From the IMG/VR virus record IMGVR_UViG_2690316311_000002: DNA of 11,272 nucleotides; one strand, 5' to 3'. Of this stretch, positions 2,812 through 5,078 are shown one piece after another; within the stretch, counting starts at the first letter, position 1; each line of letters opens with the position of its first letter. A model generated the notes under the pieces. The model saw only the letters and a list, made by a program, of their open reading frames with translations, was not told where the DNA came from and did no database searches. The translations under genes and the position numbers were made by a program. The stretch is from a virus. Taxonomy: Duplodnaviria > Heunggongvirae > Uroviricota > Caudoviricetes.

Positions 2812-4230
2812 ATGCCTATTCAGCAACTTCCGCTTATGAAAGGTGTCGGCAAAGACTTTAGAAACGCCGACTATATCGACTATCTGCCAGTGAATATGTT
2901 GGCTACACCCAAAGAAATCCTGAACAGCAGCGGATATCTTCGCTCATTCCCGGGCATTGCCAAACGTTCTGATGTGAACGGCGTATCGCGAGGCGTCGAG
3001 TACAACATGGCACAGAATGCTGTTTATCGCGTGTGTGGTGGCAAACTGTATAAGGGCGAAAGTGAGGTCGGTGATGTTGCCGGAAGTGGTCGCGTATCAA
3101 TGGCGCATGGTCGAACATCACAGGCGGTAGGCGTTAACGGGCAACTGGTCGAATACCGCTATGATGGCACGGTTAAAACCGTCTCAAACTGGCCTGCAGA
3201 CAGCGGGTTTATGCAGTATGAGTTAGGTTCTGTTCGCGACATTACGCGTTTACGTGGGCGTTATGCGTGGTCAAAAGACGGCACTGATTCATGGTTTATC
3301 ACTGACCCTGAAGACGAATCGCATCCTGACCGCTACAGCGCACAATATCGAGCCGAGTCTCAGCCTGACGGCATCATCGGCATCGGAACATGGCGAGACT
3401 TCATCGTCTGCTTTGGTTCATCGACGATTGAATATTTCTCCCTGACGGGGGCAACCACCGTTGGTGCCGCTTTGTATGTCGCACAGCCATCGCTGATGGT
3501 GCAGAAAGGCATTGCCGGGACTTACTGCAAAACGCCGTTCGCCGATTCGTATGCGTTCATCAGCAATCCGGCAACAGGTGCGCCGTCTGTGTATATCATC
3601 GGCTCCGGTCAGGTATCACCAATCGCCAGCGCGAGCATTGAGAAAATTCTTCGCTCCTACACTGCTGATGAACTGGCTGATGGTGTGATGGAATCGCTGC
3701 GATTTGATGCGCATGAACTGCTGATTATCCACCTTCCGCGCCACGTCCTCGTGTACGACGCATCTTCAAGCGCCAATGGTCCGCAATGGTGTGTGTTGAA
3801 AACAGGCCTGTATGACGATGTGTACCGCGCTATCGACTTCATTTACGAAGGAAATCAGATAACGTGCGGCGATAAGCTGGAATCGGTTACCGGGAAATTG
3901 CAGTTCGATATCAGCAGCCAGTATGGGCTACAGCAAGAACACCTGCTGTTTACTCCGTTGTTCAAAGCGGATAACGCCAGATGCTTTGATCTGGAGGTGG
4001 AATCATCGACGGGTGTTGCTCAGTACGCTGACCGCCTGTTCCTCTCTGCAACCACTGACGGCATAAATTACGGGCGTGAGCAGATGATTGAGCAGAATGA
4101 ACCGTTCGTTTACGACAAACGCGTTTTGTGGAAGCGAGTAGGGCGCATCAGGAAAAATGTTGGCTTCAAACTGCGCGTTATCACTAAGTCGCCTGTCACT
4201 CTGTCTGGCGCTCAGATAAGGATTGAGTAA
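2812..4230 (+). CDS. Tail accessory factor, P22 gp10-like
   Basis: 472 aa, the same length as P22 gp10. Position between the gp4-like and needle genes. RBS AGGTGA upstream. Synteny and size only. Confidence 0.82.
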
Positions 4231-5078
4231 TGGCGGATTCGAATCTCAATGTGCCGGTAATCATTCAGGCTACACGGCTCGACACATCAGTCCTTCCACG
4301 CAATATCTTCTCGCAGTCGTATCTGCTTTACGTTATCGCACAGGGTACTGATGTTGGTAATGTGGCTAACAAGGCCAACGAGGCCGGACAGGGCGCTTAT
4401 GACGCACAAGTCAGGAACGATGAGCAGGATGTGATTCTCGCTGACCATGAGCAGCGAATTTCTGCTGCGGAAGCAACGCTTGTTAATCATGAGGAGCGAA
4501 TCAGCCAGGCAGAATCAACTCTTCAGGAACATGAAACGCGAATCGCTCAGAATGAAAGCGATATTGCGTCGCTTGATACCAGAGTTCAGTCGCTGGAATC
4601 GCAGGTTTCAGACCATGAATCGCGCATTGATGCTCTGGAGTATGCCACTACTCGCAAGAAGTCAGAGGTTGTTTACTCTGGCGTATCTGTAACCATCCCG
4701 ACAGCGCCGACCAACCTTGTTAGCCTGCTGAAAACGCTCACGCCGTCATCAGGCTCGTTGGCACCATTCTTCGACACCGTTAACAACAAGATGGTTGTGT
4801 TCAACGAGAACAAAACCTTGTTCTTCAAGCTGTCGATCGTCGGGACGTGGCCCAGCGGAACCGCCAACAGGTCAATGCAACTAACATTTTCCGGCTCTGT
4901 TCCTGACACACTGGTAAGCAGTCGCAACTCGGCGACAACGACCGATAACATCCTGTTAGCTACGTTCTTCAGCGTGGATAAAGACGGCTTTCTTGCCACA
5001 AATGGCAGCACGTTAACCATTCAGTCAAATGGTGCGGCGTTTACTGCCACAACCATCAAGATAATCGCGGAGCAGTAA
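4230..5078 (+). CDS. Tail needle protein (P22 gp26-like) with a C-terminal knob extension (Sf6/HK620 type)
   Basis: N-terminus [43 protein letters not shown] matches the conserved tail-needle N-terminal domain as I recall it. Central HE-x-RI heptad repeats indicate a trimeric coiled coil. 282 aa versus 233 aa for P22 gp26, consistent with a knob-bearing needle. Start overlaps the upstream stop as TAATG. Confidence 0.9.

Follow-up and report, generated by a model that had tools for sequence, protein, structure and literature searches.

A tail needle gene with an Sf6-type knob in a P22-like prophage of Escherichia coli

Introduction

In P22-like phages, the channel of the tail hub (gp10) is what the tail needle plugs. 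The base of the needle closes this channel and its tip extends past the tailspikes (PMC3741392, PMC9728967), and the needle of phage Sf6, gp9, has been visualised in the virion (PMC9728967). The tip of the P22 needle, gp26, comprises residues 141-233 (PMC3741392). Sf6 carries a knob that has been described as "TNF-like" (PMC3741392) and that "is lacking in P22 and HK620" (PMC6024685). L-glutamate is contacted in the knob by E146, K200, S248, D250, L255 and K277 (Sf6 numbering), and a conserved S-R-N triad contacts phosphate (PMC3741392).

The distribution of the two tips was surveyed in 2013 in 164 P22-like genomes, of which 69 had knob tips and 95 had P22-type tips (Leavitt et al., PMC3741392). 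Divergence among the knobs did not exceed 4.9%, and their acquisition was argued to be horizontal and recent. At that time the knob was reported, within P22-like phages, only from those of Escherichia and Shigella (PMC3741392). The glutamate-contact residues were also reported to be conserved in knob homologues outside the P22-like phages, which have other N-termini and are not P22-like tail needles (PMC3741392). A passage of PMC12502783, citing Parent 2012, names P22, Sf6 and CUS-3 as P22-like groups defined by their coat proteins.

Here we describe the needle gene in an 11,272-nt stretch of viral DNA (IMG/VR record IMGVR_UViG_2690316311_000002), which is called the window and to which coordinates refer unless another sequence is named. 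With a probability of about 0.96, its product is the Sf6-type needle of a P22-like podovirus, a trimeric fibre that closes the channel of the tail hub and reaches out past the tailspikes. The gene is an ordinary one that is already annotated and structurally characterised, and its identification is not new.

The Needle Gene and Its Neighbours

4230..5078, plus strand: tail needle gene (homologue of Sf6 gene 9 and P22 gene 26), an intact ORF of 282 aa plus stop
2812..4230, plus strand: tail hub gene (homologue of P22 gp10 and Sf6 gp8; Pfam PF11134, 989 bits; 99.2% identical to Sf6 gp8)
5078..5533, plus strand: homologue of P22 gp14 (DUF2824; Pfam PF11039; 98% identical to Sf6 gp10)

The ORF listing returned the 282-aa needle reading frame intact, as an earlier note on this DNA had described it. 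The gene is flanked by the gp10 homologue upstream and the gp14 homologue downstream, in the order of Sf6 genes 8-9-10. It overlaps both neighbours by a TAATG, in which the stop of the gp10 homologue meets the needle start and the needle stop meets the start of the gp14 homologue. In the alignment with Sf6 gp9 that the earlier note had proposed, 276 of the 282 residues were identical (97.9% overall), and the DNA was 96.1% identical to Sf6 8254-9102. The six substitutions (S92R, E100D, A113S, S131T, S176T and A270S, window to Sf6) are conservative; the shaft has four of them and the knob has two. The Sf6 needle (AAQ12199.1; knob structure 3RWN) is thus alike in length (282 aa), three-domain layout, neighbourhood and all glutamate and phosphate contacts. 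The hosts differ, the window belonging to an E. coli O26-type prophage and Sf6 infecting Shigella flexneri.

Existing annotation agrees with this assignment. RefSeq names the product of the identical O26-type prophages (WP_000785546.1) "tail needle knob protein", and the PHROG assignment is phrog_1030, "tail needle knob". The NCBIfam search gave only sub-threshold coiled-coil matches for the needle and none for the coat protein. Near-identity to Sf6 gp9 suggests that the protein would trimerise, be incorporated into virions and bind glutamate, and at 98% identity it may be expected to form a homotrimer at the tail tip that is shed at infection.

A promoter and terminator scan of 3900-5400 gave no signal above shuffle expectation, and Rfam, searched with the full window at gathering thresholds, returned 0 matches. 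The needle gene has no separate signals and forms part of the late operon. Three ORFs in other frames within the gene (4287-4490 minus, 4447-4692 plus and 4673-5020 minus) were judged spurious because the needle frame is kept at 98% protein identity.

Plug and Shaft Domains

4230..4409, plus strand: N-terminal plug or tail-hub-binding domain (aa 1-60), by homology to the P22 gp26 N-terminus
4410..4646, plus strand: coiled-coil shaft (aa 61-139), about 11-12 heptads, by heptad register and matches to 2POH and 3C9I
4446-4460, 4488-4502, 4530-4544 and 4614-4628, plus strand: four HExRI codon motifs, encoding residues 73, 87, 101 and 129

Residues 1-60 are 100% identical to Sf6 gp9, 97% to HK620 gp26 and 82% to P22 gp26, in line with the conserved N-terminal domain proposed by the earlier note. 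A fragment of the P22 gp26 N-terminus (8EAP_B) matches residues 3-64 with E=1.7e-27, and residues 1-144 match the P22 gp26 and HK620 needle structures with E about 1e-44. Identity in the shaft (61-139) is 95% to Sf6, 33% to HK620 and 41% to P22, and the shaft matches the helical core structures of P22 gp26, 2POH and 3C9I.

When residues 61-144 are written in rows of seven, about 12 heptads appear with the pattern E-x-R-[ILV]-x-x-[HAL]. Position 4 is I, L or V in 10 of the 12, and position 1 is E, D or Q in all 12. The H-E-x-R-I motifs occupy every second heptad of the shaft. The earlier note had read these heptads from the nucleotides, and they can indeed be seen there: the DNA pattern CATGARNNNCGNATH has 4 matches (4446, 4488, 4530 and 4614) against 0.04 expected, a number that 0 of 200 shuffles reached. 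The pattern is a codon echo of the protein periodicity and no true DNA repeat, since Tandem Repeats Finder found no arrays in 4230-5078 and a repeat search in the needle gene returned only 29-nt stretches that are 62-72% identical, spaced by 42 and 126 nt.

The Knob Domain

4647..5075, plus strand: C-terminal knob domain, a TNF-like jellyroll (aa 140-282, 143 aa), by PDB, Pfam, PHROG and Foldseek

The earlier note had named as decisive against it a C-terminus unlike the known knob fold. Residues 130-282 are instead identical at 151 of 153 positions to the crystallised Sf6 knob (3RWN, E=1.6e-90), which settles the fold. The same count of 151/153 was obtained for the knob of prophage HS1 of E. 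coli HS (4K6B, E=4.8e-90), which has in common with the window an Ala at Sf6 position 270. Pfam PF16532 (Phage_tail_NK, "Sf6-type phage tail needle knob") matches residues 108-282 over the whole profile (1-175 of 175) with 386.1 bits against a cutoff of 27. Structure prediction, also proposed earlier, gave a single-sequence AlphaFold (AF2) model of moderate quality (pLDDT 64.8), with which Foldseek retrieved 3RWN and 4K6B first (TM 0.75) and then TNF-family, C1q and PRD1 P5 folds. All nine contact residues are kept (E146, K200, S248, D250, L255, K277 and S231-R232-N233), so that by sequence the L-glutamate pocket and the distal phosphate triad of the window knob are intact.

The relation to the P22 needle differs in part from that proposed earlier, namely a C-terminal extension of roughly 130 residues that P22 gp26 lacks. 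The knob is real, yet it is 143 aa long and takes the place of a 93-residue tip (141-233), for a net gain of 49 aa over the P22 needle. It replaces this tip and is not appended to it, because the C-termini are unrelated while the N-terminus and shaft are homologous by domain. The P22 and HK620 needles (2POH, 3C9I, 5BU5) resemble the window needle in plug domain, HExRI coiled coil, gene position and plug role, but end in a 93-residue tip that has no relation to the 143-residue knob. Identity of residues 140-282 is 99% to Sf6, 18% to HK620 and 20% to P22 in a forced global alignment. HK620, which the earlier note had offered as a knob needle for comparison, was aligned and turned out to have a knobless needle of 233 aa.

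Knob needles also vary in the shaft. The HS1 needle has a 16-heptad shaft and 317 aa (PMC3741392), compared with about 11 heptads in the window. The needle of phage Gally (L007 911-1864) is of this long form, with 317 aa, and is 90.8% identical to that of the window. Some knob needles of 317 aa have 35 residues, or five heptads, more of shaft, with a knob 97.9% identical to that of the window.

Where the Needle and the Knob Occur

In E. coli O26-type genomes, a P22-like prophage beside tRNA-Arg/intS is 100% identical to positions 128-11272 of the window. Of 5,426 complete E. coli genomes, 920 contain sequence that matches the needle gene; among these 920, at least 80% of the gene is covered in 470, and identity reaches 99% or more in 90 records. 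The phage isolates N7, Louie, Kapi1 and Sf6 carry the gene at 96-97% DNA identity. It is also present, at 96.5% DNA identity, in Klebsiella phage phiKp_30 (LC768498.2 13779-14627), for which the recorded host is Klebsiella pneumoniae. In many O157:H7 genomes just the 3' 62% of the gene remains (for instance NZ_CP038287.1 1521045-1521571; query 321-847, 95.6%). These remnants are annotated "tail needle knob protein" and agree with the small P22-like remnant of Leavitt et al. (PMC3741392).

Beyond the P22-like phages, a tblastn search of the phage collection with window 4647-5075 returned knob homologues at 27-57% identity in 290 phage records. These include large myoviruses of Salmonella, Dickeya and Klebsiella and RB43-like, Aeromonas, Vibrio and Edwardsiella phages, and many are annotated as hypothetical. 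In the PF16532 homologues of RB43-like, Vi1-like (Ackermannviridae), Aeromonas, Vibrio and Dickeya phages the domain is C-terminal too.

Coat Type and Mosaicism

847..2118, plus strand: Sf6-type major coat protein gene (423 aa; Pfam PF11651, 472 bits)

The coat protein is 99.8% identical to Sf6 gp5, 99.5% to HK620 gp5 and 22.8% to P22 gp5. Pfam identifies the neighbouring P22-like virion genes as homologues of coat, gp4, gp10, gp14, gp7 and gp20, and the window is syntenic with Sf6 genes 5-13. The earlier note had taken the needle and the 423-aa coat together to place this phage in the Sf6-like subgroup. The coat bears this placement out but the needle does not contribute to it: HK620 has an Sf6-type coat and Sf6-type head-completion genes (98-99.5%) but a knobless needle. 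Needle type is therefore no subgroup marker.

The ejection proteins are mosaic. The gp20 homologue (6238-7644) is 94-98% Sf6-like over residues 1-200 and thereafter unlike Sf6, P22 or HK620. The gp16 homologue (7641-9488) is closer to P22 (74.7% identity) than to Sf6 (34%), and over residues 51-100 it matches HK620 at 100%. Since gp16 and gp20 of Sf6 and P22 cannot be mixed (PMC10461980), the mosaic pairing found here may reveal which segments must match.

The immI region (10059-10446) is reduced. It holds a Mnt/Arc-family repressor gene (10059-10358, minus strand; PF03869 plus PF11423), which the tailspike start at about 10447 directly adjoins; arc and ant are absent between them, unlike in P22.

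A Predicted Lipoprotein in the Position of sieA

9503-9988 (9503-10024 from an upstream ATG), minus strand: predicted lipoprotein of 161 aa, beginning MKKSLLIIPFLLVGC, with Ala at +2

The predicted lipoprotein occupies the place of P22 sieA; with 21% identity between them, it and SieA are unrelated. PHROG 6067, to which it is assigned, is a family of unknown function, and Pfam and NCBIfam gave no significant match. In strain CFSAN027346 the gene is broken by an IS3 insertion. A lipoprotein 95.7% identical to it is found in Salmonella phage VSe13 and one 96.3% identical in coliphage Gally; Sf6 is without it. The needle of VSe13 is 100% identical to the knobless P22 gp26, and that of Gally is the long knob form. 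The distribution of the lipoprotein thus does not follow needle type, as it is present with a P22-type needle in VSe13 and with a knob needle in Gally and is absent from Sf6. The earlier view that the knob bears on what a lipoprotein exclusion factor might target loses its footing in this pattern, which does not tie the lipoprotein to the knob.

Integrity of the Prophage Copy

1-127 (junction 127/128): end of an IS3-family element, abutting nt 178 of the scaffolding gene

Bases 1-127 of the window are an exact copy of one end of an IS3-family element (L005 16950-17076). The 885-nt scaffold gene is cut at nt 177/178, so that its first 59 codons are lost, and there are no shared bases upstream. 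The scaffold gene is intact in related genomes. Strain 00_3305 carries this IS, likewise oriented, at a distance of 5.87 kb upstream. This suggests that the junction arose by a new insertion or by an IS-adjacent deletion of about 5.9 kb, from rha through portal. The junction of IS and scaffold was not found contiguous in any complete E. coli genome of the searched collection. As the IS3-family element truncates the scaffolding gene, the source prophage copy is probably defective, though the needle gene itself is intact.

The IS fragment also accounts for the thousands of E. coli and Stx-phage matches to the whole window. An IS inside the virion genes of the window was considered and rejected: the IS3 annotations near the top E. 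coli matches are strain-specific, and the IS sequence of the window consists of bases 1-127 only.

Alternative Readings

Two other readings concern what the needle gene is and whether it is used. A P22-type needle with an unrelated or novel C-terminal extension would account for the match of the N-terminal 144 residues to P22 gp26 structures. We give it next to no credence, however, as residues 140-282 are close to the Sf6 knob and far from the P22 and HK620 tips, and the PDB entries for the P22 and HK620 needles have no aligned stretch past needle residue 144. That the intact gene is an undeployed relic, in a prophage whose scaffold is truncated by the IS, whose terminase and portal genes are possibly deleted and which makes no needle-bearing virions, strikes us as fairly likely. 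The cut scaffold gene points this way, the position of the IS in 00_3305 is consistent with an IS-adjacent deletion, and O157:H7 genomes hold truncated remnants of the needle gene (also PMC3741392). Against this, the needle ORF is intact, as are all the virion genes that follow it in the window; these genes match those of scaffold-intact prophages at 100% identity, and a residual scaffold ORF of 235 codons persists. The window moreover begins within the IS, and the stretch beyond the IS lies outside it.

A further reading concerns function. The earlier note had linked the knob to a distinct mode of envelope penetration and to the use of outer-membrane proteins as secondary receptors. The knob would then be a receptor-binding module for OmpA/OmpC and might plausibly be targeted by the lipoprotein encoded nearby in the prophage. 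Sf6 needs OmpA/OmpC besides LPS (PMC9400499, PMC9728967). In vitro ejection requires LPS plus OmpA/OmpC in the knob-bearing Sf6 and LPS only in the knobless P22 and HK620, and the knob has been raised speculatively in this context (PMC6024685). None of 48 Salmonella P22-like phages has a knob (PMC3741392). The link to Omp receptors is nevertheless a correlation across three phages (PMC6024685), and the genetics point elsewhere: in evolved Sf6, all mutations in host range and Omp dependence map to the tailspike, among them a cluster at its distal tip that changes the dependence on OmpC, and the authors concluded that the tailspike is what binds the protein receptor as well (PMC9400499). A distinct penetration mode likewise finds no support: P22 with Sf6 or HS1 knobs plates normally and infects Salmonella normally, and glutamate-site mutants have no phenotype (PMC3741392). 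Only the kinetics of K+ release shifted, and in one hybrid: the HS1-knob chimera reached 40-70% of the wild-type rate and the chimera with Sf6 knob and Sf6 shaft was about wild type, from which the authors concluded that the tip influences delivery kinetics and that there is no essential receptor-triggered switch (PMC3741392). With the lipoprotein accompanying a P22-type needle in VSe13 and missing from Sf6, we regard an OmpA/OmpC-binding knob as improbable. It is more doubtful still that the knob has an envelope-sensing role in its native E. coli or Shigella, through an Omp or glutamate-linked cue, with the lipoprotein excluding superinfecting phages there. Such a role would escape laboratory P22 chimeras, and we know of no study in which Sf6 or an E. 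coli phage was deprived of its knob and grown on the host that it normally infects.

For the Sf6-type plugging needle, the literature on Sf6, HS1 and P22 suggests the following course. The tailspikes would cleave the O-antigen, after which the needle tip would contact the outer membrane. Release of the needle would then open the channel to the ejection proteins and DNA. The knob would be a tip module, acquired horizontally, which host specificity does not require under laboratory conditions. It would at most modulate the kinetics of DNA delivery, with no receptor binding known.

Significance

The significance of this gene is small beyond its correct annotation, and the useful outcome of the analysis lies in corrections. 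One of these is that the prophage copy here appears to be inactivated by the IS element. The knob should not be assumed to be an Omp-binding component when exclusion factors are reasoned about. Needle type is a freely exchanged module and is unsuitable for subgrouping P22-like phages.
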